DNA of 64,000 bases from Eledone cirrhosa (lineage: Eukaryota), in assembly GCA_964016885.1 (NCBI GenBank), contig OZ024741.1, positions 35,154,001 through 35,218,000 on the forward strand, given 5' to 3'. The position numbers and the translations under genes are program-made. The stretch's first letter is position 1, and each line of letters opens with the position of its first letter. Positions 5,905-60,188 of this stretch are shown here, piece by piece. Below the pieces are notes generated by a model that had not been told where the DNA came from, did no database searches, and was given only the letters and a program-made list of their open reading frames with translations.

Positions 5905-8082
5905 CACTGGGCATTATTTCTGGTGCCTGGAATATTTCAACGAATTCTTAAGTGGTTTTGCCTGCTAAATTAAAAAAAAACTTCAGTTTTTCTCCATCAG
6001 GTCTAGTTTTCTGACTAGACCTGATAGAGTAAGTATTTATTCATACAAGAGGCATATAATATGAATCAATAAAGAGAGCGTAACACAAAAACAAAACAAA
6101 GTACAAATAAAAATTCAAAATTGAAAATGCACATTGGCAAAGATTTTTGGCAGAAAATTCAAGGAATAAATTTACGCTTCTTTGTGCACCGTGAATGTTG
6201 AACAACAGGAGTATCTCGTTTTAAACACCAGTAATAGTCTGCCATCATCACAGCGTCCCAACGTCCTTGATACCGAGTTTCCATCTCCTGAGGGAATTGT
6301 TCGCCTTGTTCATCGCTAACATCTCCGAGATTTTCAGGAAAACGATCAAGATGACTAAAAAAAATAATGCACTTTGATGCTCATATTCGCGCCAATATCA
6401 CGAAAAGTTGATATCAAGTTGGTAACAAGGTCTTTATAGTTTTCACTTTTGTGTTTCCCAAGGAAATTTTTCACTACTTCTGCAAAGGCTAGCCAAGCTG
6501 ATGCTTCGTTTTCGCTCATCGTTTTCACGAAATCCTTCAAGAGCTTACGGATCTGTGGTTCATCAAAAATCCCTGCTTTAAGTTTTTCAATCGTCAAGTC
6601 TGGAAATATACTGCAGATATACTTGAAGCACTCCCCATTTTTGTCAAGAGCTTTGACGAATTGCTTGATCAATCCGAGTTTGATGTGCAAAGGGGGGGAA
6701 ATGATCTAATCTCGCTCAACTAAAGGTTCTTCCAATATATTGAGAGCTCTACATGGAGCCATATGTGTTCGAGGCGGCCAGTCTTTCTTAACATAGTGGT
6801 TTACTCGGTCTCTACTGTCCCACATCCAAAGAAAGCATGGGTATTTGATAAACCAGATTGCTGTCCCATGAGAAAATTCACCATCTTTAGGTCAACGCAG
6901 ATGACCCATTTATGATCATGATACAGTATCCTCTCTAAAACCAACTCAATTTCTTCATATTTTCCCTTCAGAGTTGTTGAGTTGCTGAGTGGGACAGAGC
7001 CATATACATTTCCGTAGTGCAACAATACATATTTTAAACTAAGTTTAGAGCTGTCTATGAAAAGACGCCATTCCTCTGGTTTGTATTCCTCAATGCCAAG
7101 TTTATTAAGAAGCCCACTGACATCTCTGCAGTAAATCAGCTCTTCATCTTTTGTGTGAGAAAGAAAAGAAATCTTCATACCGACTCCAATAAAAGGTTAT
7201 ACAGACACCATTCTCTAGAAGATTCTTCTCTTTCAGTTGGAAAGCCAACAGTTCTGCAAACATTTTTGGGAGGGTCAAGTCACCGACTAGATCATTCAGC
7301 TCTACCTGGGAGAATAGCTGAGGTAAAGTCTCAACTGAAAAGTCTTGATCTCTCGTCTCATCTTCAGGTGATGAATCTTCTTTGGTTAAAGGTAAAGTTA
7401 TCTGAGGCAAGACATTGAAGACAGGAACAGGAAGCTTTTCACTGTGTGGAACCGGTCTAATAGCAGAGGCAAGATTAGGATAGACAAGCGTTTGTCGATT
7501 TTTCCGTTTAATACCCTTCAAATTTAGGTTACAAAAATAGCAGCCGTCCACGTAATTATAGGGCTCCCTCCATACCATTGGTATAGCAAACCTCATACTT
7601 TTGCTTGTCCCTTTAGTCCATTGTTGCAAATGTTCTGTACATTGTTTGCAGACACTATGCGGTGCCCAATATTTATCTTGGTCTTCAGCTTGACCCCAAA
7701 ATATGCCATATACGCTCTTTCAACAAAATCAGTGATGTTTTTTTTCGATTTTCAGGTAATGTGTATTCTCCACAAACATAACAAAACACATTTGGAGAAT
7801 TAACACAACACTTTCTTGAAGAGGACATCTTGCTCATTTTCTATTGCTTAGTTCACCACAACATCTAAAAAATATGGAAAAAGAAAAAAAATTTAGAATT
7901 AGAATAAAGTAACGAACACTGCGTACTGGACGTACCCACATACATAGTGACTATAGGGATGTTCAATAAGTTAAAAACTAGATCTGATAGGTAAAAAAGA
8001 AGGTTATATTTGGATTCAGGAGACAGGTTTTGTATAGGAATGATGTCTATTTCCTAAACACCAAAAACCTTGTAGACCAGTG
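5905..8082 (-). mobile_element. Chapaev3-like (CMC superfamily) DNA transposon, full length, decayed
   Basis: Termini CACTGG...CCAGTG flanked by a 3-bp TTA duplication (5902-5904, 8083-8085); subterminal inverted motif ATCAG(G/A)TCTAGTTTT near both ends; internal transposase remnant. Confidence 0.85.
6159..7837 (-). pseudogene. Frameshifted Chapaev3/CMC transposase
   Basis: Fragments in different frames: SSRKCCVNSPNVFCYVCGEY, MVWREP...CYFC, WRLFIDSS, ICVDLKMV, LHIKLGLIKQFVKAL, KVHYFF-SHLD...SDEQGE; several indels and stops. Confidence 0.85.
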
Positions 8083-10572: not shown

Positions 10573-11298
10573 TTACTCTGGGGTCTTTCCTCATCTGGGT
10601 GCTCAAGCTACAGACCGATTATGCATACACGCTAGCTTGGCCGTATTCTAAAGCTTCGTCAATGCTGTACTAAAATTTATATTTACTCCTAGAATTAATG
10701 ATTAACTGATTAATTTAATTAGATGATTCTATTGATTGATTAATTGTTTAAGTTTGTTTGATAACTTCTGGTTGAGTGCTTTATTCGGTTTGTCTAAAGG
10801 GATTCATTCCTTTATCTCAAATTAGAATTCACCGCCTAAGCGGGGGTTACCTCCCTTGGAGTAAACCACGTGTCTGTGGCGACATTTAAAGCTACAACAT
10901 ACCCGCTCAGGCTAAGAACGAAAGACTTGCTGAAGAAGTAAATCCTATGTTCTGTCGTCAAAAACCATTATATTGCAGACTCCTGCAATAGGAATTTGTC
11001 GATCTTGGATTTGCAGAAACTTAGCGCTGATGTTGGATGCTATATATGTAAGTTATATATTTTGCACTCAGCCTCACCCCTATGTCCGGGTCAGTATAAA
11101 ATCTTTTCCTGGGTCCTGTATTTTCGTTGCTCTAGTGATGCGGCTGGACTGCCGACCGCTATATCTGATTTGCTAAGCTGTCTGAACGTAATGATATTAC
11201 TCTGGGGTCTTTCCTCATCTGAGTGCTCAAGCTACAGACCGATTATGCATATACGCTAGCTTGGCCGTATTCTAAAGCTTCGTCAATGCTGTATTAAA

Positions 11299-11305
<7 letters not shown>
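10573..11305. repeat. ~730-bp element bounded by ~110-bp direct repeats
   Basis: 10573-10682 matches 11197-11306; TA-rich flanks. Confidence 0.7.
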
Positions 11306-11329
<24 letters not shown>

Positions 11330-11667
11330 ACCAAATGTTAATAAGGTTCATTGATTACTCAATGAATATAGTTTTACAATAGATTCAAAGCACTCAACAA
11401 AGAAGTTTTCTGGAGTTATTAACATTATTCAAAATATTAATAAATGAAGACGTTCACATAATCAAAATATGTTCTATTATATATATTTCGGAGGTACTGT
11501 GCTGTTTTTTCAGTACGTCAAGACAGTTGAGGTATGTCGTACATCAATTTATGTATTTTATCTGATGAGGACGTACTGAAAAAACACCACAGTACCTCCG
11601 AAATATATATAATAAAACATATATTTTGATTATGTGAACGACTTCATTTATTAATATTTTGAATAAT
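11330..11667. mobile_element. Short hammerhead-bearing fold-back (PLE pseudo-LTR derivative)
   Basis: Inverted arms 11424-11519 / 11570-11667, (TA)n on both sides. Confidence 0.7.
11556..11617 (+). ncRNA. Minimal type I hammerhead ribozyme
   Basis: UUUUAU-CUGAUGA-GGAcGUACUG(loop)CAGUACcUCC-GAAA-UAUAU-AUA^-AUAAAA; stems I, II and III all pair. Confidence 0.8.
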
Positions 11668-11757
11668 ATATATATATATTTATATATATATATATATATA
11701 TTTATAAAAATTATAAAAAATAAACAAAGAGGCCTTCAATACATCAAACGTCTTTAT

Positions 11758-11803
11758 TAGCCAACAATGTTTCGTCCCATTAATAAGGACTCATCAGGGC
11801 AAG
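11758..11803 (-). ncRNA. Minimal hammerhead ribozyme (left arm of the PLE fold-back)
   Basis: GCC-CUGAUGA-GUCC(UUAUUAAUG)GGAC-GAAAC-AUU-GUU^-GGC. Confidence 0.72.
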
Positions 11804-14126
11804 TAAAGAAACAAGAAGCATTAACGGCCAGAACAATCCAAAACTCAGAAGAATAGGGAGTTTATACCTATGAAAGCTTAGGAAAGATATCAAGGAAAAG
11901 CATGCTAAAGCTAAAAGTGTGCAGTTACAAATATAGACTATAGGGCAAGAAAGCGAGTAACATGTTAAACCTACGTTGAAAGTATAGTATAATACAAATA
12001 CATGAAACACAACATGGTAATATAATGTGAGAATTACAATATGATATAGAATACAATATAATGGATAATAAGGAATAAAAAGCTTAATATATGTATATAT
12101 ATATATATCCATATATATACACATTTACACAAACACATACTAACACTTATTAAGTATTTAAATATAAATATACTCGTTATAATATAAAAAACCTTTATAA
12201 TAGAATAAAATAATCACCCTGACGTTGTGCATAAACAATACAGAAAATAATAGAATAATATACTGACATCAAAAAATATACAAAACTACATCATACATAT
12301 TATTTAAGGTCAATAAATTGTATATAAAGTTTTTCACAGGGTAAGAAAAAATATCATACAAAACTAAAGTATGTTGAAAATATATATATATAAATACATA
12401 AAGTATTGACAATAAATACATAGAGGTATAGGCAGTTTACATTCATAAACTCTAGTACTAATAACATTGAGCATAATAGGAAGAAGCTATATAAATTTTT
12501 TTTAAATTTTAACCTTTCGATCACGATTGATAAGAATGATAGAGCAGTTAACTTTTTAGATGTGACATTAGACTTGGTCACTAATAGTTATAAACCCTTC
12601 CACAAGCCAAATGAGACACTCTCTTACGTTAATACTAATTCCAACCACCCTAAATCTATGATTAGTTCTATAATTAATGGTGTATTTAATAGAATCTCCA
12701 CACTCTCTAAGGATATAGGAATCTTTAATTCACATGCAGAGTATTATAATAATGCCCTAGCTAACTCTGGTTACTCTGGTAGAATACATTATATTCTTAC
12801 CTTTACTATCTCTACCGTTATCTGGTATCTTATTAATAGGATCAGGGTTAATACGAGGAGTAGTTGAAATAACACTATTAGAAGCAGTTAAAACATTACC
12901 ACTGGGTGAACGTTCAGAGCGCCTATCCTGTTCGTTAGAACTAATCTCGAAATGCGTACCAGTAGACTCACTATTACGATTACTATTTCGGTAGCTATAC
13001 TTAGGGTTCGGTTTGGATATATCTATAAGATTTCTATGATTCCTATATTTTCTACTCTTATTCAAGGCCATATTATGGGATATTACGTTATTATGAGTAA
13101 TCGGAGTCATTCCAAGGTTTTCCTCCTTATAATGTATTCTACCAGAGTAACCAGAGTTAGCTAGGGCATTATTATAATACTCTGCATGTGAATTAAAGAT
13201 TCCTATATCCTTAGAGAGTGTGGAGATTCTATTAAATACACCATTAATTATAGAACTAATCATAGATTTAGGGTGGTTGGAATTAGGATTAACGTAAGAG
13301 AGTGTCTCATTTGGCTTGTGGAAGGGTTTATAACTATTAGTGACCAAGTCTAATGTCACATCTAAAAAGTTAACTGCTCTATCATTCTTATCAATCGTGA
13401 TCAAAGGATCAAAGGACTAAAATTTTTAAAAAGTTTATATAGCTTCTTCCTATTATGTTCAATGTTATTAGTGCTAGAGTTTATGAATGTAAACTGCCTA
13501 TACCTCTATGTATTTATTGTCAATACTTTATGTATTTATATATATATTTTTTCAACATACTTTAGTTTTGTATGATATTTTTTCTTACCCTGTGAAAAAC
13601 TTTATATACAATTTATTGACCTTAAATAATATGTATGATGTAGTTTTGTATATTTTTTGATGTCAGTATATTATTCTATTATTTTCTGTATTGTTTATGC
13701 ACAACGTCAGGGTGATTATTTTATTCTATTATAAAGGTTTTTTATATTATAACGAGTATATTTATATTTAAATACTTAATAAGTGTTAGTATGTGTTTGT
13801 GTAAATGTGTATATATATGGATATATATATATATACATATATTAAGCTTTTTATTCCTTATTATCCATTATATTGTATTCTATATCATATTGTAATTCTC
13901 ACATTATATAACCATGTTGTGTTTCATGTATTTGTATTATACTATACTTTCAACGTAGGTTTGACATGTTACTCGCTTTCTTGCCTTATAGTCTATATTT
14001 GTAACTGTACACTTTTAGCTTTAGCATGCTTTTCCTTGATATCTTTCCTAAGCTTTCATAGATATAAACTCCCTATTCTTCTGAGTTTTGGCTTGTTCTG
14101 GCCGTTAATGCTTCTTGTCTCTTTAC

Positions 14127-14172
14127 TTGCCCTGATGAGTCCTTATTAATGGGACGAAACATTGTTGGCTAA
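14127..14172 (+). ncRNA. Minimal hammerhead ribozyme (right arm of the PLE fold-back)
   Basis: GCC-CUGAUGA-GUCC(UUAUUAAUG)GGAC-GAAAC-AUU-GUU^-GGC. Confidence 0.72.
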
Positions 14173-14317
14173 TAAAGACTTTTGATGTATTGAAGGCCTT
14201 TTTGTTTATTTTTTATAATTTTTCGGCTCTGTTATATTACATTGAGCTATATCTTATACTGTCATTTCTATAATACGACGAGTGTGTTTAACTCCAACGC
14301 ACTCTAGTATTTTAATT

Positions 14318-14472
<155 letters not shown>

Positions 14473-14751
14473 ATTTTGGTATGCTTATATACATTTTTTC
14501 TTCTAACTTTGATTTTATACCTAATTGTGTATGGTTGACAATATATTTAATCGATTTCCACGTGCTATTAGAAATGGTGGGTAAATATTCTATAGCTGAA
14601 AATCGCGGATAGATAGCTGTCGTTTATTTATCTATTATTTCTTCATAGGTGCCTTTTAATCTTATAGCCTTGTTTAATTGGTTTTTGATTATGCTGATTG
14701 GGAGAGGAGATGATGTATATATTTTATCCAATGATTCTATGGACATACTTT

Positions 14752-14834
<83 letters not shown>

Positions 14835-16578
14835 GAAAGGTATAGAAATTGTTTTAGCGAGAAGCTAACAGTTCCATAACATATATGCGACTATGTCGTC
14901 AAGATGGGAAAAATAGTTAACGTAAGATGTAGGAAAAATAATTCAAACTCATCTCAAAAGAGAATCAGGATACAAATTCATCCACAGAATTTAGTGAAAT
15001 CCAGGGAAAAATCAATAGACCCTTAACTCATGATAAAATAAAGTTTAAAATACTTATCCTTCAATTTGGAAAAACATCAAATGCTCTGTATAGTCTTAAA
15101 GACTATTTCATGAAAACTTTCAGTGGAGATGGTCACGGTTGGATTTCAATCGTCAGCAGAGCTCAACAGATAACCAGGGCTCCAACAGAATTATAATATA
15201 TATATATATATATTATAGATGATCTAACAATTCACCGCCCAGAACTGGAAATTTATTTTGTTGACTCCAAAAGGATAAAAGGCTAGATTTGAACACAGAG
15301 AACAGAATAAACACCACAAGGAAAAATTGCCAAAGGGGAGAGTTAAAATAAAGTATCAAATACTTTCATAAATATAACTAGGAGCTATAGAAGGGAGGAG
15401 AGAAAGAGATAGGGAGAGTCAGAGAATGTGTGTGTGTGGGAGAGAGAGAGAGAGTGTGTGTGGGGGGGGGGTCTGCGTTTATGAGTGTATATGAGAGCAT
15501 GTGGGGGGAAAAGTGTATGAATGTGTATATATGTGTGTGTGTGTGTGAGAGAGAGAGAAAAAGAGACATTTTTGTTACAACTTAACCCTAGCTTTCTCAG
15601 TGGATGAGAGAAAGTCCGAAGGGTGCCGTCGCCCCCTATAGATGTAACAAATCTCCAGGAGTTGTCACAATTTGTTTTGTTTTTATTTCAATATATTTAT
15701 TGTTTTCACATTTATCATTTAGTATTTAGAAGATCCCAAACACGTGATGTGATGCTCTATATCATGTATTACCCTCCAGACGACTTCTCAAGTTGACGGC
15801 ACATACAGCCGATCATAATATTCCGGTTTGTTTCTTGGTATTGTCCTACTAAATGTATTTTCTGTATTGTGTCTCCCATATTTCCTTTCCGGAATTAGTA
15901 AAACAAGTAATAATTATTCTATAATTATTAGTACTTCTTTCACAGTCTCTGGAAATATAAACTTAAAATTAATTTTTGCAACAGTTAAAAAAACTGCTAT
16001 AGAATGAAAGGGGGATAACTACTGTTCATCCAAGCAAACTTGAAATTTTAATCTATGAGTGTAAACGTTCAAAATATTTCTTCTTCTTCTTCTTCTTCTT
16101 CTTGAGAGATAGATAGAGAGAGAGAGAGAGGGTCGTTGGGGCAGAACCCTCAAACACTCCTTCCAGCAGGTCCTGTCGGAAGCAACCGTTTCCAACTGAT
16201 CCGGCTGGATTCTCAGGCGAGACTAGATAAGCTCAGAGATGTTATTCAACCATATTGCTCGGGGTCTACCACTGGGTCTCCTGTCGGTTGTTTTGGCCCA
16301 TAAAATCTGTCCAGATGCCAACAAAATATCAAGCTTTGAGTAATATAGTTACAAAATCAACAAAAGAAAAAAAATCACAAGTATAGTCCATATTACTATT
16401 TAAACTTTAACTAAATAAATCCGATGAGTGCGGATGCACAAAGCGCATAAATTATAATGGATAGAAATACAATATGAAGATATGTAAGACATTTCATGTG
16501 TCTGACACATATTTTAACAAGATACAGGATTTTGTGAAATTAATAACAAATTCCTCGAATCAATGCTCAGATCATTCC

Positions 16579-18075
16579 TCCAGTGTCATTCCTCTGTTCA
16601 AAAAGGGTGACCGTACATCACCAGTGAAGTATCGTCCAGTCAGGCTTACTAGTTGCATCGCCAAACTGATGGAATCCTGTGTCAGAGAAACACTTTGGAA
16701 CTTCTGGAGCTCTCACAGTCTTATCCGGCCCTCACAATTTGGATTTATCCCCCAACTCCAGCTGCTGTGATCAACTTATAGAGTTTCTTGAGGCCATCAC
16801 CCGGATCACTGATGGCGGCTCATGGGTGGATGTTGTTTACCTTGACTTTGCGAAAGCCTTCAATTCTGTGCCACACAAAAGGCTTATGGCAAAACTCTCT
16901 GCAATGGGTGTGAAGGATGATCTTTTTAACTGGTTGAAGTCCTTCATTCTCAGTCGAAGAGAGGTAGTCACGGTTCTGGGACAGCATTCCTCACCATATG
17001 AGATGTCATCTGGTGTACCACAGGGATCTGTTCTTGGCCCTCTTTTGTTTGTGGCATATATTAATGACATAGATGCCAACTTAAAGAATGCCACGGTACT
17101 AAAGTACGCAGATGACATCAAGCTGTACCTTGAGATAAAAAGGACAGATCCTGAACACTATAGATCTTGCTTGCAGTCTGACCTGGACACAATGCAACAA
17201 TGGATCTCAGACTGGCAACTCAAGCTAGCTGTGGACAAGTGCACCACCATGCATTTTGGGAGTAAAAACCCAGCGTCCACATACTCCCTCCACAGCACTA
17301 ATATCAAGAAGTCTTCTTGTGGACGTGACCTGGGCATTACGGTCAGCAGCGATTTTCGTTGGATGAAGCACGTCTCTAAAATTGTCAAGAGGGCCGAGGG
17401 TATCTTAGCATCACTCAGCAAGACCTTTGTCAGCCGCTCTCCAGATATCTATTTAAGGCTGTACATGGCTATGGTGCGGCCACATTTAGAATTTGCATCA
17501 CCAGTCTGGAACCCCTATCTTGCTCAGAACATTGACCGCCTGGAAACTGTTCAGAGACGTGCAACCAAGCGAATACCCTCCATCAGGCATCTACCATACT
17601 CTGAGCGTCTTGCTTCCCTGGGCATGGATACATTGAAGCTCCGACGTCTGGCAACTGACTTGGTAAACACCCACAAAATTGTTAACCATCTTGCCAACAA
17701 CAACTCTGAGTACCTTTTTGATTTCCATGTGTCTAACACACGTGGACATGCCAACAGAGTCAGAAAACAGCACAGCTCCCATGACTTTTGGAAACATTTT
17801 TTCGCGCTCAGAGTTGCTGAAGCATGGAACAAACTACCTGCATCAGTTGTTAGCTGCAGAGCCACTGCATCCTTTAAAACCTCCATGCTTCCTTAAATTC
17901 GCCAACACTACACCTGATTTCCCCCCTCCATACACATACACACATGTATACCATGACTCATACACTATTCACTTCCCTGACATTTGTGTATTATTCTATG
18001 TACTATACATACACCTTTGACGAGTTGTAGTGCACCTGAGCACTTTACACAATAATTTCATTATTATTATTAATA
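16579..18075 (+). mobile_element. 5'-truncated CR1/Jockey-group LINE (RT region and 3' end)
   Basis: YRPVRLTS, QFGF, DFAKAF, GVPQGSVLGP, YADD, VRPHLEFASPVWNP; 3' UTR ending in (ATT)n. Confidence 0.92.
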
Positions 18076-18972
18076 ATTGTTTCTACTTTTTGGCACAAGG
18101 CCAGTAATTACCCAGTACATTACTGGTACTTTACTTTATCAACTCCGTAAGGATGAAAGGTAAAGTTAACCTCGGCTGGATTTGAATTCAGAACTCGAAG
18201 GGGCGCAATTCGGTGCCCCAAAGCATGGTGTTCGACGCTCTACCGATACAGCCAATCCACTGTACTAATAATTGTTTCTACTTTTGGCACGAGGCCAGCA
18301 ATTATCCCAGTACATTACTGGTGCTTTGTTTTATCTACCCCATAAGGATGAAAATCAAAGTTAACCTCGGTGGGATTTGAAATCAGACCGTAAAGGGGCG
18401 CAACTCTATGCTATACAAAGCATGGCGCCCGACCTTCTACCGATATTGCCAACCCACCGTACTAATAATGCAGCTTGAGTGAGATTTTTCACTATTTCCA
18501 TTTTTCATATTGTTTAAACTTGTAAGACAAATAAAATGTATTGAATTTCTTCGTCTTGGATTTCTATCCATTATTATTTATGGGCGGTGAATTGGCAGTA
18601 TCGGTCGAGGGTCGGACACCATGCTTTGACGCATAGAGTTACGGCCCTTGCCATTCTGAGTTCAAATCCCGCTGAGGTTAACTTTGCCTTTCATCCTTAC
18701 GGGGTCGATAAAATAAAGTACCAGTAATGTACTGTGTAATTGCTGGCCTTGTGCCAATAGTAGAAACAATTATTTTAGGGTGGTTGATTGGCAGTATCAA
18801 TAGAGGGTCGGACGCCATGCTTTGCAGTATAGAGTTACGGACCTTTACGTTCTGGGTTCAAATCCTGGTACGGTTATCTTTGCCTTTCATCCTTACGGGG
18901 TCGATAAAATAAAGCACCAGTAATGCACTGAAATAATTGCTGGCCTTGTGCCAAAAGTAGAAACAATTATTT
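18075..18972. mobile_element. Cluster of four tRNA-derived SINEs with a Deu/Nin-like core
   Basis: ~190-bp units: two on - (18075-18465) and two on + (18582-18972); B-box GAGTTCAAATCCC, core CTTTCATCCTTACGGGGTCGATAAAAT...GTACCAG. Confidence 0.85.
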
Positions 18973-19389
18973 TATTTTAATCTATAAACTTCTGACGCGC
19001 TCTCTACTGTGTTGCTGTGGCGCTTGTATTAAAAGTTATAAATATTAATATCAGATGAAACGTATTTCACTGTTTAATTTCATTCCCAACGCTACAGGAT
19101 TCAAATCCAGACAGGATCAACTCAGCATTTCATCTCTCTTTTATTGATAAAGTACACTGCTTCACAAATCCCCACCCTCCCACTCGCCGCAAAATTTCTC
19201 CAAAATTAATTGTTATTGTACATTTACTTTGTTAATTGTCTTCACAAAATAAAGCTTCTATTTCATATGTACCAATAACATAATAAAGTCGCTTTAACTG
19301 GCCTTATATCTCTGCTACACACTACTTTTAAATGTCTCCTTTTTTTTTTAAATTGGAATTATCACTCTCAATGGCCATTGCTTAGGTGC

Positions 19390-21035
19390 CTTTCCAGAGA
19401 TGCAGGCCACTCGACACACACGAGTCAACCAGAGACTACCTTCTCTATTTAATGCTTTTAACATCTCAGGCGGAATTTCATCCTCTTAAGTGATCTTATC
19501 ACATTTGAGTTCTAGTCAAGTATCTGCATTGAGGATAACTTACAACCAGCCCTGACAGTAAGGTGTTCTGGAAATATGTACGCTCAAAGCAGAAGCCGCA
19601 CTCTCCAGTTGGTCCTCTTCGCAATCCCCACTCAAGCCAGATTACTAACGACCCCAAGGAATGCGCAGAACTCATTGATGAATGCTATGCTGGCATGGCA
19701 TTTTCACTGTTGAAGACCAAAATGTACCATCTCCACCACCTCTGACACCAAATTCTATAACAAATACGGCAACCTATGGCAAAACTCTCTGCAATGGGTG
19801 TGAAGGGTGATCTTTTTAACTGGTTGAAGTCCTTCATTCTCAGTCGAAGAGAGGTAGTCACGGTTCTAAGACAGCATTCCTCCCCGTATGAGATGTCATC
19901 TGGTGTACCATAGGGATCTGTTCTTGGTCCCCTTTTATTTGTTGCATATATTAATGACATAGATGCCAACTTAAAGAATGCCACATTGCTGAAATATGCA
20001 GATAACATCAAGCTGTACCTTGAGATAAAAAAGACAGATCCTGGACTCTATAGTAGAGTAGCGGTTGGCTGAACTGAGCCAAACAACGTACAGAGAATGA
20101 ATTCAAGAGCCATCAGAATGTATAGTGACCTACAGATCTTTCCTGCAATCAGACCTGGACACAATGCAGCAATGGATCACGGACTGGCAACTCAAGCTGG
20201 CTGTGGACAAATGTACCACCATGCATTTTTGGGGAGGAAAAACCCAGCGTCCACATACTCCCTCCACAACACTAATATCAAGAAGTCTTCTTGTGAACGT
20301 GACCTGGGCATTACTGTCAGCAGCGATTTGCGTTGGATGAAGCACGTCTCTAAAATTGTCAAGAGGGCCGAGGGTATCTTAGCATCACTCAGCAAGACCT
20401 TTGTCAGCCGCTCTCCAGATATCTATTTAAAGCTGTATATAGCTATGGTGCGGCCACACTTAGAATTTGCATCACCAGTCTGGAACCCCTATCTTGCTCA
20501 GAACATTGACCTCCTGGAAACTGTTCAGAGACGTGCAACCAAGCGAATACCCTCCATCAGGCATCTACCATACTCTGAGCGCCTTCCTTCCCTGGGCATG
20601 GATACATTGAAGCTCCGACGTCTGGCAACTGACTTGTTAAGCGCCCACAAAATTATTAACCATCATGCCAACAACCCTGAGCACCTTTTTGATTTCCATG
20701 TGTCTAACACACGTGGACATGCCAACAGAGTCAGAAAACAGCACAGCTCCCATGACTTTCGGAAACATTTTTTCGCGCTCAGAGTTGCTGAAGCATGGAA
20801 CAAACTACCTGCATCAGTTGTTAGCTGCAGAGCCACTGCATCCTTTAAAACCTCCATGCTTCCTTAAATTCGCCAACACTACACCTGATTTCCCCCCTCC
20901 ATACATACGCCCACTGACTCATATACTGTTCATTCATTTTCCTGACATTTGTACATTATTCTATGTACTATACATGCACCTTTGATGAGTTGTAGTGCAC
21001 CTGAGCACTGTAGACAATAATTTCATTATTATTAT
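19390..21035 (+). mobile_element. Second, rearranged copy of the same CR1-like LINE
   Basis: Closely similar to 16880-18070 from 19773 onward; internal deletion near 19770, ~75-bp insertion near 20055-20130, in-frame stop; (ATT)n tail. Confidence 0.9.
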
Positions 21036-21918
21036 TTTTTTATTTTTTATTCTCACTATAGAAGGAGGTACTGAAAAGAATCACACGTATTACCTCCCCT
21101 TCCTTTTATTTAGCCATTAAAAAAGATTTTACAGTATTTAATTGTAGCTTTACGTTCGGAAACTAAATCTGACTGTAGTGGACATTGCTTTTCAGTCTTT
21201 CTAAGTACCAATGGTATATGCGACTCATTGAACGAATCGTTAAAAGCTAATGTGTCCTTTAATATTTTTTCAAAGGATGGTAGCGTGAGATTTGTGGAAA
21301 TGTGGTATCACTCTGTATAAGTTCATAAATGTTGTTACGTTAATGAAATTAAAAAGTGGCATTTGAATTTGAGAATAAATGTTTTGTTTTGAAATTTATT
21401 GTCTTATTCTCTTCTAGTATTTCGTGAAAATGTTTATATGAATGATGCATTTTGTAATAGTTTTGATTGTTGGGGAATTCAAAAGATGCCCGAGCGTTGT
21501 CGAAAGTAATGTTAACCAGTGATTGGATATCTGGAAATATTTAATTTTGGGTTACTAGTCTGTATAGACCATTGATTTTATAGTCGTCAAAAAAGAGCTG
21601 GGTCCTTAACACTTTATTATAAATTCCATTCTAAAATTAAATTAAAACTGTCAAAATGCAAAAAATATACCTAAGTCTTAATAGAAATTACGAAATAATA
21701 TATTGAAGGTGTGTAAGCTTTGAATATATATCATCGATAAATAAATAATAGAGGATGTGGAATATAGGAAATAATATTATTAAGAAATATATTTATTAAA
21801 AAAAATACACGATTAAAAATCATTATACAGAGAGAGAAAATAAATGTAGAAAGCACTGTCAACTGGAATAATTTTTCAATCGGAATTTATTTTCTATTTA
21901 CACCGTATTGCTGTCAAC

Positions 21919-32510
<10,592 letters not shown>

Positions 32511-32727
32511 GAAGAGAGCTTAAAAACTTTGGTTAAGGGGAGCCTGTGTATGAGAATTATGCATGTGTGTATGTATGTGTGTAATCAATATGAACCAGAA
32601 CAAAAAAAAAATAGCTTAAATATAATAATCTCCCCCCCCCCCCTCTCTATATATATATAAAAACAAGCAAATTATAAACGTAAACATGTATGTTTTTGAA
32701 ACTGTGCACGAGTTTGAAATTAGAAAC

Positions 32728-32955
32728 TATAAGCTTTCACCATATTTTAGACTAAAAAAATTCCTAGCCTGGTAGTGGGGCTTATAACCCTCGGAGAAAT
32801 GGAAAAAGATGAGTGTTGCCGTACACGGCAACACTCATCTTTTTCCATTTCTCCGAGGGTTATAAACCCCACTATCAGTCTTTTTCCATTTCTCCGAGGG
32901 TTATAAACCCCACTATCAGTCTTGAAATTTCTTTAGTCTAAAATACAGTGAAAGC

Positions 32956-32960
<5 letters not shown>
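32728..32960. repeat. Fold-back hairpin downstream of the TRAPPC5 stop
   Basis: ~40-bp perfect arms centred on 32823-32824, imperfect outer arms, and a 41-bp tandem duplication in the right arm. Confidence 0.85.
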
Positions 32961-32994
<34 letters not shown>

Positions 32995-33812
32995 TGTGTG
33001 TGTGTCCTTATTTATTATTCTCTAAAAAATTATTATTCTCCAAATGATACTAAAAACATTTCAGAAATAATTTGATAGACAAAAACTACACAAGCCCATC
33101 ATATGTGTGTATGTATGTGTTTATGTCCTGTAATTTTGCAGTTCAACAAAAAAAAAAAATCAATGAGTTCTGGGGTCAATATAATTGACTAAATCCATTT
33201 AATGTTTGAAACCAGTAAAGGAATAAAATAATATACCCAATTAATGAGTTGTTTAAATTTTATAGTTAAACATTAATTTCTAATCTCTGAAGTATCTCCC
33301 ATCATGCTGAGAGACATTTGTTGGAAGGAACGTTTCTGTCTTTAGATGTTACATTTACTTTGTCACCTGGTTCTTTCATGCCTTTAACAGAATTTGCTCC
33401 AATGCAAGTATTGCTTGGAGGCCCTGAAAACAGTCATGAGCACTGTCATTCTTCTTCTAATCAGTTATATATATCTTTTCTTTTAAAGATACATTTGTAT
33501 TGATTTCAGAACAGGCTAGATAGTAAACTCAATTTCTTTTGCCCTGAATGAAAGATGATAAGAATAGAGAGGACTTTTTTTTACCATGCAAGGCAGCCTT
33601 TCCAGTGCTGGTGCCATGATAAAATTCACCCAGTACACTCTGTAAATTGTTAAGAAAGATATCCAACCATAGAAACTATGCCAAAAATTAGAACGCATGA
33701 GTGAGACATGGCCCCCTCAACCCATCCATGAGGGTATTAACTAACAATCCAGCATAGAAAGAAGACATAAAATGATAGTGGTGAAAATGATGAAGATGAA
33801 TGCTGTAAAATA

Positions 33813-33969
33813 CGAGGGTTAGCTGAAAAGTTCATAGGCTGACCAAGATACTCTTATTGAATGACCAAATGAGGTTTATTTTTCAACATAGTCCCTGGAA
33901 AGAAACAATGCAGTTATTAATAAGAAGAGTTGAAATTAATGCATGCAAGATTTCACAGCATCACCCTCA
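33813..33969. mobile_element. Mariner-like MITE
   Basis: TA|CGAGGGTTAGCTGAAAAGTT ... TTTCACAGCATCACCCTCA|TA. Confidence 0.55.
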
Positions 33970-34766
33970 TATATTTTTAGAGAGAAAAAAGTTTTGAATA
34001 ATATCAACAGTTTTTTTATTGTTTCAATGCATCTATGAGTTTTATATTAAACGGATGCTAATTTTAACAAAAAACTATTCAGATAAAATAGACAGCAGAA
34101 GATAATCTCTATTTTTTACCTTTAAACTTAACTGCTGCTAAAATATCTTGAATACAATAGTCCAGTTCTTCCTTTCTCATTCATTAGAATATTAACATCA
34201 TACGAAGATATTAACTATATGTAATGAAATAATAATATACAATATTGGTTTGAACGAAAATTCAAACTACCCTTTGTGTTGTAAGAGGTAACTAAGAGAA
34301 TTGGTGCCATGATGACTATAAAGTCTCATGGGGCCTACAAAGTAAACACATACTTTAGAAGTAAAAATAACTAAAACGTTAAAAGTTAGATCCCTTTCTT
34401 TCATTATTTCAATATTAACATCATATGAAAACATTAACTATATGTAATGAAATAATATACAATATTGGTTTGAAAGAAATCCAGCAATTTGCTAGAGTTT
34501 CATTTTTTCTTTTCCATCTCTTATTTTTAGAGAGAACCATATGGAAGCATTAACATTTTTTTTACTGTTTGTAAATCTTCACTTTCCAAAAGAAACAGTG
34601 TAACAAGATAAAAAGTCAGTTTAACAAGGGACAATGGTGGGGAAATGAGATTTAAAGTCTGTTTTTGTTTTTAAAAACAAATTGTTTGAACCGAAAAAAA
34701 AAAGTGAGAGTAAAATACAAGGGATGGTTACATTTGCTGTCAGTTTCTAAAACATTGGTTATAATT

Positions 34767-57455
<22,689 letters not shown>

Positions 57456-58504
57456 AGCTAGACCTTTTGTAGTAGCTTCACTGAGAATCAATCTTTAAAT
57501 AAAGAGCTACAAATAAAAAATGAAAATAAAAATAAATAAAAAAAGAACATAAATTCTCTTATTCTTTTACTGGTTTCAGTCATTTGACAGTGTCTATGCT
57601 GGTACACCACCTACAAGAGATTTAGTAGATCATATCAACCTCAGAACTTTATTTTTTTCGTGTCTGGTACTTATTTTCTATCATTCCATTTTATCAAATG
57701 ATCAGTTATGGTACGTAAGCAAGCATTAAACATAAACAGACATTCAGTGAGTTTTACATCAACAACACAATACCAGTATACATTTGTGTCAAAGAACACC
57801 TCAGAACACATGAATTACCGTTTGAGAAACACATAGATATGTGTAAGAACACAAATAAGGATATAAATAACAGTTACTATCGAAGCCATAGATAGGAATA
57901 CTGGCAATCTTAAAATCAAAGAATCTATTTTAATAGTCAAACTCAAACACCAAATCAACAACAAACTAAAACTCAACACCCAGTGGCTAACATAAACATA
58001 CCCACTACCATACTTCACTCCACTTCAAATATAAATACAAGCCTAGTTGGAAATCGTCTTTTATTCACAGATGTATAAAAATATAATATAATGCTTACAG
58101 AATGAAAACACACACATAATATATACAAATATAAAAGAGAGATTAAAAAAACAACATAAGGAGTGGCAGCATTGCTTTGGGTGATGGCAAGGCTAAGGCA
58201 CTGAAACAACCAGGCGTCCTCACCCTAGTTTAGATGAGAAAATAATTTAGATCAGATACCATGTGATCCATTCACTACTTTCAGCATTGGAAATAAAACA
58301 ACACTGCTTTCAAACTTCAAAAGTGGCTGCCTAAGAGCAACAAAAAATATACATCTCCAAATTAATTTCTTCAATTAATCTTTTGCTGGAGGGACTTTAT
58401 ACCAAAATAAACAACATCCCAACATCATTGTTATTATATTTTTAACAATTAATATCCATCCAATTCACATTCTGGTAGCCTTCAAATAAAACACTATCTT
58501 AATA

Positions 58505-58905
58505 AAAGGAACTAAATCCACTCTGTAAATGTGGTTGGCATTAGGAAAGGCACCCAGCTGTAGAAACCAAGCCAGAAATGGTTGTGTGTGAGTAAGACAC
58601 AGTCATCTGATCTGCCTTGTCTCACAACAGGACAACACGTCTAACCCATACTAACAAGGAAAATGGACGTTAAACAGTGATGTTGATGTGTGTATGTACA
58701 TATACACATGTGTGTAAATATATATATATATATAAAGTTGCAGTAGAAGTAGACCAAGGAAGACCTGGATGAAGGTGGTGAGAGCTGATCTCAAATCGCT
58801 GAAACTCACATGAGATGACGAAGGAACACGTGTGGAGAAATGCTGAAAAAGACCCATCCATCACGTGCAAGCATGGAAAAACAGACGTAAAACAACGATG
58901 ATGAT
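58505..58905 (+). mobile_element. RTE/SINE 3' fragments
   Basis: AGGAAAGGCACCCAGCTGTAGAAA module, RPRKTW remnant and (GAT)n tails. Confidence 0.6.
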
Positions 58906-59411
58906 ATATATAATTTTGATTTTTGGTATAACAGCATTTTAGAACATCGACCCCACCCCACCACCACCTTTTATCTTATATTTGTATTCTATGAAATTTA
59001 GAACATTTTTGACATATCAAAGTGTTCATGTGACAGAGGAACAAAACGCCTGTACAGTTATTATAATATAGATTTGGAATAATGCCACTCAATGTTTTGT
59101 GTTTATAAGGACACATCTGAATGAATGCCTGTAGTAATTATTCCTAATTAGTAAAGCTAGTACTATTTTTTTTCTAATTATACCTTACACATGTTGGGAT
59201 GGTCACTCATCTAAGATCGAGTCTTGACTTCATGGCAGAGTAACCTCATATTGGATTCCTACTAACACAGATCTCACGTAGTTCTACACTGACATGTATA
59301 AATCAATAAAAACAAGCATACATCACATGCAACCACCTGCCCCATTTCTCTCAACTTTACGAATACTGGGATTTGTATCTATGTAAGAAATCAATATATA
59401 TATATATATAT

Positions 59412-59727
59412 AGGCACATGGCTTAGTTGCCTTGCAATCGAAAGGTTGTGAGTTCAATTCTCAGACCGGGTGATGTGTTGTTTCCTTGCGCAAGACACTT
59501 TATTTCAGTTTTATCCAGTTTACTCAGCTGTAGAAATGAGATGATAGGACCCCTGCAAAGTGGTCGTGGAAGTGCCACGGCAAAAAAGCACCCAGCACTC
59601 ACTGTAAATGAGATTGGTGTTAGGAAGGGCATCCAGCTGTAGAAATCAAGCCAGAATCAGTTCCCGTCCCACCCTTGCAAGCAGGGAAAAGCGGACGTAA
59701 AATGATGATGATGATGATGATGATGAT
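59412..59727 (+). mobile_element. tRNA-headed SINE with an RTE-derived tail
   Basis: Same family as 22832-23170; (GAT)n tail. Confidence 0.82.
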
Positions 59728-59819
59728 ACAGAGAATGAGAGCATCCAAGATGCTATAATTTACCAATATAAACCATTACTTTATGAACACTGCATGGCAG
59801 AATGGATATATATATATAT

Positions 59820-60188
59820 GGAGAAGTTATAATTAATTTGTTGGGATTCCAACAAACTTAAATGTTTATAACTAATATAGAGCACTCAACAGAGAACTGG
59901 AGTAAATATTCAATATATTAATAAATGGAAACTATATTTATAAAACCATAATTATTTTATTATATATATTTCAAGGGCGACCAAGCCAATCTTGGTGCGC
60001 TTTCATCAGATAAAATACACAATTTGTTTTATAAATAGTGACATAACCATGGGAAACAACCTTGACGGTTGAAAATTCGCTGGAATTTTCAACCGTCAAG
60101 GCACCAAGATTGGCTTGGTCGCCCTTGAAATATATATAATAAAATAATTATGGTTTTATAAATATAGTTTCCATTTATTAATATATTG
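59820..60188. mobile_element. Short hammerhead-bearing fold-back (PLE pseudo-LTR derivative)
   Basis: Inverted arms 59911-59998 / 60101-60188, inner perfect hairpin 60060-60101, (TA)n on both sides. Confidence 0.7.
59955..60015 (-). ncRNA. Minimal type I hammerhead ribozyme
   Basis: UUUUAU-CUGAUGA-AAGcGCACCAAG(AUUGG)CUUGGUcGCcCUU-GAAA-UAUAU-AUA^-AUAAAA. Confidence 0.8.

Follow-up and report, generated by a model that had tools for sequence, protein, structure and literature searches.

Penelope-like elements (PLEs) of the Hydra clade have been described as having only one open reading frame (ORF), in which a reverse transcriptase (RT) is followed by a C-terminal GIY-YIG endonuclease, together with a hammerhead ribozyme in a pseudo-long-terminal-repeat (pseudo-LTR) and a (TA)n target (PMC8557442; here and below, statements from works cited by accession refer to passages of them). 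The origin of the tandem and inverted insertions of PLEs, and of their one-sided tail, was treated there as an open question. In the Poseidon PLE, genomic ends coincide with start sites of reverse transcription in vitro, both strands of the target undergo cleavage and extension, there is a need for RNA 3' of the start site, and unprocessed RNA is the main substrate (PMC11167929); for PLE hammerhead RNAs, circles have been proposed (PMC4209133). Here we consider a stretch of 64,000 nt from Eledone cirrhosa (the window; 3.0 Gb of genome were searched), in which the hammerheads of putative Hydra-clade PLEs are followed by a small bulged hairpin. In intact copies this hairpin is present twice, as HP1 and HP2, between the ribozyme and the AUG, and each of the two lies at a short fixed distance from one of two alternative element ends, here called short and long. 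On this positional evidence, and on that of covariation, it seems likely that the bulged hairpins are RNA sites that bind the RT-endonuclease protein and thereby fix the start of target-primed reverse transcription.

Two bulged hairpins and two fixed ends

The relevant features of the window are as follows.

11556..11617 (+), type I hammerhead h1, with palindromic helix III and predicted cleavage after AUA, in the short arm of a head-to-head insertion
11522..11668 (+), short arm of the h1 insertion, ending in (TA)n 8-10 nt before the would-be start of HP1 (by comparison with its own inverted arm)
11330..11521 (-), long arm of the h1 insertion, 5'-truncated within stem II, passing HP1 and ending in (TA)n
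11389..11416 (-), HP1 of the h1 family, with ACUC/GAGU, a 2-nt bulge and 3' GCU
48800..48866 (-), hammerhead h2, with helix III palindrome AUGCGCAU
48728..48755 (-), HP1 of the h2 family, found by hairpin pattern and model
48672..50620 (-), 5'-truncated single-arm copy of a young PLE assigned to the Hydra clade, flanked on either side by (TA)n
50055..50620 (-), frame of a C-terminal GIY-YIG endonuclease in which a CxCx5C linker and CxxC and CxH motifs are present
59955..60015 (-), hammerhead h3, in the long arm of a head-to-head insertion
59881..59903 (-), HP1 of the h3 family, the long end lying at ~59820
60096..60188 (+), inverted short arm of the h3 insertion (start approximate), ending in (TA)n before HP1

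A preliminary description of this window had reported the three hammerheads, each reading TTTTAT-CTGATGA-(stem II)-GAAA-(AT palindrome)-ATA-ATAAAA, and the three minus-strand hairpins, and all six lie where it placed them; it put the hairpins about 45-65 nt past the predicted cleavage site, and a hand count gives 51-62 nt to the hairpin start. Of the form that it gave to the hairpin, the lower stem and the 2-nt bulge hold, but the CAG/YUG upper stem does not, as C-G and U-A first pairs are both common. Genome-wide, the exact hairpin pattern has 18,908 matches (9470+9438) and its reversed control none (0+0), and within the window a loose pattern matches only the three known places. The covariation that had been proposed as a check is present, in the 2-nt-bulge register only. 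In 59 clusters anchored solely on CTC and GAG, the outer pair is kept in 52 (shuffle mean 38) and, in that register, the next three pairs in 53, 44 and 35 (shuffle 41, 26 and 26); the other bulge registers gave, in 16 tests, one p of 0.02, the remainder being near or below shuffle. When 54 hairpins were curated by hand (5 rows dropped as false, mis-anchored or N-containing, and 3 re-anchored), 97% of cells were paired, with 49 two-sided changes against 11.7 after shuffling, and slid registers were 23-59% paired; all 54 have U as the first base of the bulge, and 51 have RCU as the 3' triplet. Coding constraint on the hairpins was ruled out, as they lie 5' of the first Met and their loop lengths vary in non-three steps.

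The preliminary description caught half of the pattern: HP2 was overlooked, and so were the window's fourth family and its ORF-less element, the hairpins of which are related. HP2 (GCUC-stem-loop-UN-GAGC-GCU) lies just 3' of the long end in copies that run into the ORF, and was observed in intact copies of three families. A two-hairpin pattern from which the h2 family was excluded gave 36 matches against 0 in controls, and all 30 of those fetched continue into RT-coding sequence. Among 30 loci chosen by their hammerhead alone, 21 have their end, in (TA)n, immediately before HP1, another 8 continue through it and 1 is interrupted. Within the h2 family, 6,002 copies end short (forward strand only; the reverse count, 20,680, is inflated by overlapping matches), 9,166 on both strands pass HP1, and 238 enter HP2. 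Distinct ends mapped on two-hairpin leaders (54 short and 62 long, with 24 other (AT) runs, most of them internal, set aside) cluster at -10 to -4 relative to the first base of the hairpin, a spread widened by diverged references in old families; position -8 falls within the possible junction interval of 40 of the 54 short ends, and -7 within that of 41 of the 62 long ones. The fixed ends thus lie some 7-9 nt 5' of their respective hairpins, with AT microhomology to the target at the junctions, and that of the h1 long arm, as placed from related intact copies, is ~9 nt before the start of HP2. In two public runs of one study (kind unknown; maybe the source of the assembly), contigs have loose (AT)n ends at both end positions, and the summed depth falls more than 100-fold past the long end. 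The earlier suggestion of a family-wide cis element is therefore borne out and extended, the hairpin being clade-wide, covarying and tied to element ends; as a 3'-end signal it does mark ends, but it is not carried inside the 3' end of the copy, each hairpin being just outside (3' of) its end.

For 18 of 20 leaders from E. cirrhosa and 11 of 13 foreign ones, prediction gives, above shuffles, a long-range helix that connects the 3' sides of HP1 and HP2, despite leader sequences that are unrelated. By eye, two more hairpins can be made out in leaders (L061:5373-5540, L111-L140): one in the middle, with compensatory changes, and a small AU-rich one immediately preceding HP1.

The two kinds of end are combined in head-to-head insertions, of which the window has three, each with a short and a long end. 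Such insertions adjoin the (TA)n target with their fixed ends, and their variable ends meet each other at the centre. Twenty-one pairs were chosen by endonuclease match, blind to their ends; 19 could be resolved on both sides, and all 19 are short plus long, as are three further pairs. The same holds for 24 of 26 pairs in the first 25 Mb of C1 (permutation p 5e-6; 'long' here means passing HP1), and for 13 of 14 pairs from three families (one of them shared with the C1 set, and two fetched owing to an HP1 match). The two arms of an insertion come from one source element: between them, in 15 young pairs, there is a median difference of 1 nt in 1,987, whereas the arms of different insertions show a mean difference of 9.5. 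Junctions between arms mostly show 1-13 nt of overlap, with some gaps, and the arms stop no more than 40 nt apart in 6 of 24 pairs (1.5 expected, p 0.002).

Hydra-clade identity, relatives and neighbours

The single-arm copy at 48672..50620 comprises an endonuclease fragment, a 1.2-kb 3' untranslated region (UTR), the hammerhead, HP1 and a long end, so that the endonuclease frame precedes the 48.8-kb hammerhead by 1.2 kb. The Pfam GIY-YIG match to this frame is weak (E 0.005, below cut-off). A genome search with it gave 60,833 first-look candidates; all 150 that were scored are 99-100% identical, many within intact 821-codon frames, and the h2 family, to judge from its sequences, is very young. 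One locus (L061) is an intact tandem with a unit of 3,896 nt, made up of hammerhead, leader, a 799-amino-acid ORF and 3' UTR, and ending in (TA)n. Its ORF is single, with an RT (YRDD) and then a C-terminal YFG...FKARLYNH, and has motifs of the Hydra type: SDKTNN (DKT, not DKG), RRLRWT (RW-K/R/E in homologues), and in the endonuclease CNCRIKNKC, CNLC..E and N...CLH, with no CCHH seen in the alignment; a Pfam scan of the full ORF reported no family. With the hammerhead in a pseudo-LTR and insertion at (TA)n, these motifs place the elements among the Hydra-clade PLEs, and they bear out the preliminary assignment of the hammerheads to PLE pseudo-LTRs, the 48.8-kb one standing 3' of a Hydra-type endonuclease frame and intact tandem copies being present. 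Non-LTR retrozymes are non-coding tandems with a hammerhead in each unit; the h1-h3 families run into RT ORFs, and the ORF-less element of the window has no canonical hammerhead.

The hammerheads are predicted to be self-cleaving type I ribozymes of the minimal type found in PLEs. The core CTGATGA-N5-35-GAAA has 7 matches in the window against 1.28 expected, and the type I features (CUGANGA and GAAA cores, NUH site, helices I and II) are present, the closing pair of helix II, canonically G10.1-C11.1, being G-C in h1 and A-U in h2 and h3. The stem II sequences had been called unrelated; they are diverged homologues, with CGTAC...GTACC common to h1- and h3-type stems. Of 117 distinct helix III octamers, 109 are fully self-pairing, and exchange between AUAUAUAU and AUGCGCAU occurs (the search pattern itself fixed the outer AT..AT), and in co-folding of two hammerheads a helix III dimer was predicted for h2 only. 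Among the first 30 hairpin matches in the genome, 20 have an upstream hammerhead core, which in 19 lies at -102 to -108 and in the twentieth has been shifted by an insertion; of the 10 without one, most are truncated at the 5' end or inverted at the hammerhead position. A donor-like GGTATGT lies 20-45 nt upstream of the hammerhead at h1/h3-type loci (window 11530-11540 (+), L085, L093) and is absent in h2; a leader intron in the h1/h3-type families is possible.

How far does the pattern extend beyond E. cirrhosa? A protein profile search of metagenome contigs gave 427 matches, from the best 80 of which 79 contigs were fetched (28-41% identity), and in these the hairpin model has 83 matches, 80 on the sense strand, at loci many of which had contributed to the model. 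With two added by hand there are 82 sense-strand hairpins; 78 have a hammerhead core upstream or an RT N-terminus downstream, and the other four are in the same context by eye. Conversely, the N-terminus pattern has 40 matches, and after 7 internal ones were dropped, 31 of 33 are associated with at least one hairpin and 24 of 33 with two, some of these contigs being near-duplicates; one of the misses, L240, has diverged hairpins by eye, including GUUC/GAAC. Candidate ends in relatives numbered 26; with 17 set aside as matches to self or to TA only, and 1 for a poor reference, 8 remain, at -11 to -3. The offset is thus kept while the spacing between HP1 and HP2 shifts from 89-100 to 59-71 nt. 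In the supplement to PMC8557442, Hydra-1_Ajap (sea cucumber) by eye begins with both hairpins, in Hydra-2_Ajap and Hydra-2_Amil (coral) the hammerhead is followed by HP1, and in Hydra-1_Crog there may be a GCCC/GGGC variant. A search of viral contigs for relatives found none.

Next to the h1 insertion, the window contains the fourth family and the ORF-less element.

11707..14320 (strand not assigned), fourth-family head-to-head insertion with Hydra-type RT fragments; short end ~11707, long end ~14320
11770..11797 (-), fourth-family hammerhead core in the short arm, by core pattern
14132..14159 (+), fourth-family hammerhead core in the long arm, by core pattern
14226..14250 (+), fourth-family HP1 variant: GCUC/GAGC, U-A and G-C upper pairs, UU bulge, 3' UAU
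10575..11302 (+), ORF-less partial-tandem element, unit ~625-650 nt, ending in (TA)n ~8 nt before its own HP2
11199..11227 (+), deviant HP1 of the ORF-less element, with 3-nt bulge and a weak model match (E 2.5); further copy at 10575-10603
10685..10780 (+), HP2 of the ORF-less element, with the same lower stem, bulge and GCU and a loop of ~75 nt (by eye)

The HP1 variant of the fourth family scored 15.3 bits (E 0.14) against hairpin model R1, and by eye the hammerhead of this family is small, with a GUU site. The ORF-less family has HP1 with a 3-nt bulge, a long-loop HP2, PLE-type (TA)n ends and no canonical hammerhead, and is probably a non-autonomous passenger of Hydra PLEs. The association of the hairpin with hammerhead and PLE ends must be qualified to this extent: this one hairpin-bearing family has a PLE-type end but lacks the canonical ribozyme. 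All 12 of the ORF-less copies fetched end ~8 nt before HP2, with a query that favoured copies ending there; genome-wide, two patterns for its short ends gave 0, against 264 copies reading through HP1, and no head-to-head pair was found among the 100 copies listed, a pattern which fits with HP1 setting the short end. A structured GC-rich stretch lies at ~11060-11180 within this element.

Elsewhere in the window there are further hammerhead-like cores at 24287-24310 (-), 29832-29858 (-), 53459-53488 (+) and 23769-23797 (+), with no match to the hairpin model near them; they may belong to other PLE clades or to short ends. LINE-type endonuclease/RT frames (one of 936 codons) occupy 42821-45631 (-), 16670-17896 (+), 20073-20867 (-) and 39705-40894 (-). 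A SINE-like repeat in five copies (24737, 32116, 39048, 41046 and 59594) contains GAGTGCT in another context, unrelated to the hairpin. By eye, fragmented frames at 6355-7719 (-) resemble a DNA-transposon protein. An Rfam scan of the window (E<=1) found no family at any of the hammerheads or hairpins discussed here, and elsewhere just microsatellite-driven microRNA matches and other weak ones; repeat-finder output was dominated by (TA)n.

A proposed scheme of one RNA with two start sites, and its alternatives

How might two hairpins in one leader give rise to two kinds of end? Each end-marking hairpin lies outside the copied segment, and therefore has to be read on a longer molecule, most simply RNA. 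Fixed ends at the target, with variable ends in the middle, are as expected if each target strand primes a complementary DNA (cDNA). Some copies contain the 5' half of the ribozyme as well as the tail, and their RNA must therefore have been continuous across the cleavage site, whether uncleaved or re-ligated. We suggest that RNA from a tandem array, its hammerhead site either uncleaved or ligated again, would fold into HP1, HP2 and the long-range helix uniting them, and that each hairpin would be loaded with one protein unit. Both strands of a (TA)n tract would be nicked by the endonuclease, and each 3'-OH, paired with the AU-rich sequence immediately 5' of a hairpin, would prime a cDNA. Microhomology of 1-13 nt would join the far ends of the two cDNAs, and the product would be a head-to-head insertion with a tail on one side, the length of the tail being the spacing from HP1 to HP2; where a single priming is visible, a single-arm copy with either end would result. 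The binding of protein, its dimerisation, the nicking of both strands and the displacement of a strand are steps that we infer. In its fullest form the scheme would make the integration of Hydra-clade PLEs a programmed twin priming (one RNA with two RT-loading hairpins, two protein units, and two first-strand cDNAs from opposite (TA)n strands, giving tail and head-to-head insertions), and a start signal in two copies may be common to PLEs at large; we put this forward tentatively, and would rate it as somewhat short of an even chance.

Several observations weigh against this interpretation. The CUC/GAG core is invariant in the 54 hairpins, in part because they were selected on it, so that those three pairs lack covariation support; G-U exceeds A-C in the stems by just 7 to 3; and the shuffle controls for covariation ignore relatedness. 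The short-plus-long rule has exceptions: one small long-long pair in L179, one long-long and one short-short among the 26 pairs of C1, and one long-long among the 14 from three families. Moreover, 43 of 95 ends in the first 25 Mb of C1 have no detected partner arm, and the arms of 18 of 24 pairs stop far apart. The arms overlap in template, which would entail either one RNA copied twice, with strand displacement, or two RNAs. Finally, the ORF-less family lacks the hammerhead as well, so that its missing short ends are confounded.

The hairpins might instead act in DNA, the endonuclease cutting ~8 nt upstream of them in a longer-than-unit cDNA or tandem, with element ends being resolution cuts and not RT starts. 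One cut per hairpin would likewise yield a short and a long end; the tail has been ascribed to endonuclease-mediated resolution (PMC8557442), and the D. virilis tail is needed for endonuclease recognition (PMC11167929). However, covariation and the long-range helix call for a folded sense single strand, and first-strand cDNA is antisense; Poseidon ends map to RT starts in vitro (PMC11167929), and the AT microhomology with the target at the junctions is what priming predicts. We regard cutting at DNA hairpins as unlikely. That HP2 in relatives stands at a nearly fixed distance from the RT N-terminus would accord with another task for the leader, either translational control of the AUG, 20-35 nt after HP2, or hammerhead folding, with ends arising wherever AU-rich patches anneal a (TA)n primer; both start regions are indeed AU-rich. 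Yet many AT-rich patches of the leader and 3' UTR, including the (AT)4 of helix III, are not used as ends, the hairpin offset is constant despite changing intervening sequence and spacing, and the ORF-less element retains both hairpins and the -8 end. A second role of the leader hairpins in translation is possible, but an explanation of the ends on these lines alone strikes us as decidedly unlikely.

An antisense RNA template, as proposed for rotifer PLEs (PMC3846280), would turn the hairpins into stop signals, like the template boundary of telomerase RNA, and PLE RTs are sister to telomerase RT (PMC8557442). The fixed ends, though, are those that a target could prime, since it is they that touch the (TA)n and the variable ends that meet centrally, and the Poseidon template in vitro is sense RNA (PMC11167929); this seems very improbable. 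A reading of ACTCCAG as the 3' splice acceptor of a leader intron, with the GTATGT upstream of the hammerhead as donor, was also entertained, for CAG follows a pyrimidine/AT-rich stretch, the donor-like GGTATGT occurs in h1- and h3-type families, and the D. virilis Penelope intron ends at its hammerhead (PMC4209133). It was rejected as scarcely credible: TGG/CGG variants of HP1, HP2 itself and almost all relatives have lost the AG but kept the pairing, the h2 family has no donor-like site, and splicing would leave the element ends unexplained. The loading of RT by sense-strand RNA hairpins remains the reading that we prefer.

Comparison with known systems

Much of the setting of these hairpins is already published: PLE hammerheads (PMC4209133), Hydra hammerheads and (TA)n targeting, the one-sided tail (PMC8557442, PMC3846280) and the existence of two RT start sites (PMC11167929). 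A literature search, with several relevant works and supplements outside its coverage, found no description of a duplicated hairpin, of a fixed offset to both ends or of a counted short-plus-long rule. The passages of PMC8557442 and PMC3846280 contain 'hairpin' and 'stem-loop' 0 times each, those of PMC8557442 name no leader hairpin, and those of the Poseidon study name neither a duplicated element nor what sets the two RT starts (PMC11167929). Twin hairpins would, if the interpretation is right, explain the optional tail and the lopsided inverted insertions of PLEs. A duplicated motif of ~25 nt, conserved across animal phyla at a fixed distance from each end, makes the interpretation directly testable, and provides a minimal handle, at the RNA level, on a young family in which many ORFs are intact, a marker for annotating the ends of Hydra PLEs and their non-autonomous passengers, and a point of comparison for how telomerase-related RTs define their template through RNA structure.

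In the twin priming that Ostertag and Kazazian reportedly described for L1 in 2001, both target strands are said to prime on the element RNA, with the inversion joined by microhomology; the second priming is said to occur at variable internal sites, giving arms that barely overlap. In the Hydra-clade elements, by contrast, RNA structure is proposed to fix both sites, and the overlap between arms reaches several kb. R2 resembles them in having two RNA structures, each thought to load one subunit for one target strand (PMC6895275); there, however, two different motifs lie at opposite ends of the RNA and there is one first strand, whereas here like motifs are 60-110 nt apart and two first strands are proposed. 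A further counterpart is the Poseidon element of Anolis (Frangieh et al. 2024, PMC11167929), with, as proposed here, two RT starts that define the tail, an AT-rich target and a need for RNA 3' of the start; its sites are within the ORF, at an AC-rich stem-loop, and the Hydra motif is in the 5' leader and of different sequence. By eye, the Poseidon RNA in Fig. S1B of that work has GAAAG-C...ACAACA twice, ~35 nt apart, or about the length of the tail, which is a lead only; a duplicated start signal in this other PLE clade is possible.

With the minimal type I PLE hammerheads and the non-LTR retrozymes (PMC4209133, bioRxiv 2026.07.22.740005) the elements have in common pseudo-LTR hammerheads with a long helix II and a short palindromic helix III suited to dimer cleavage; the passages cited describe no downstream hairpin, and the copies in E. 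cirrhosa are the ends of autonomous PLEs and not tandem repeats of hammerheads. With the published Hydra clade (Craig et al. 2021, PMC8557442) there is agreement in DKT, RW, CxCx5C and CxxC/CxH, in tandem and inverted copies, and in a tail at one end only. Published Hydra units are generally <3 kb, and the unit here is 3.9 kb because of its 1.2-kb 3' UTR, a departure that weighs little; the tail, equal to the HP1-HP2 spacing, is 89-100 nt here and 59-71 nt in relatives, as against 30-40 nt in the published Hydra elements (PMC8557442).

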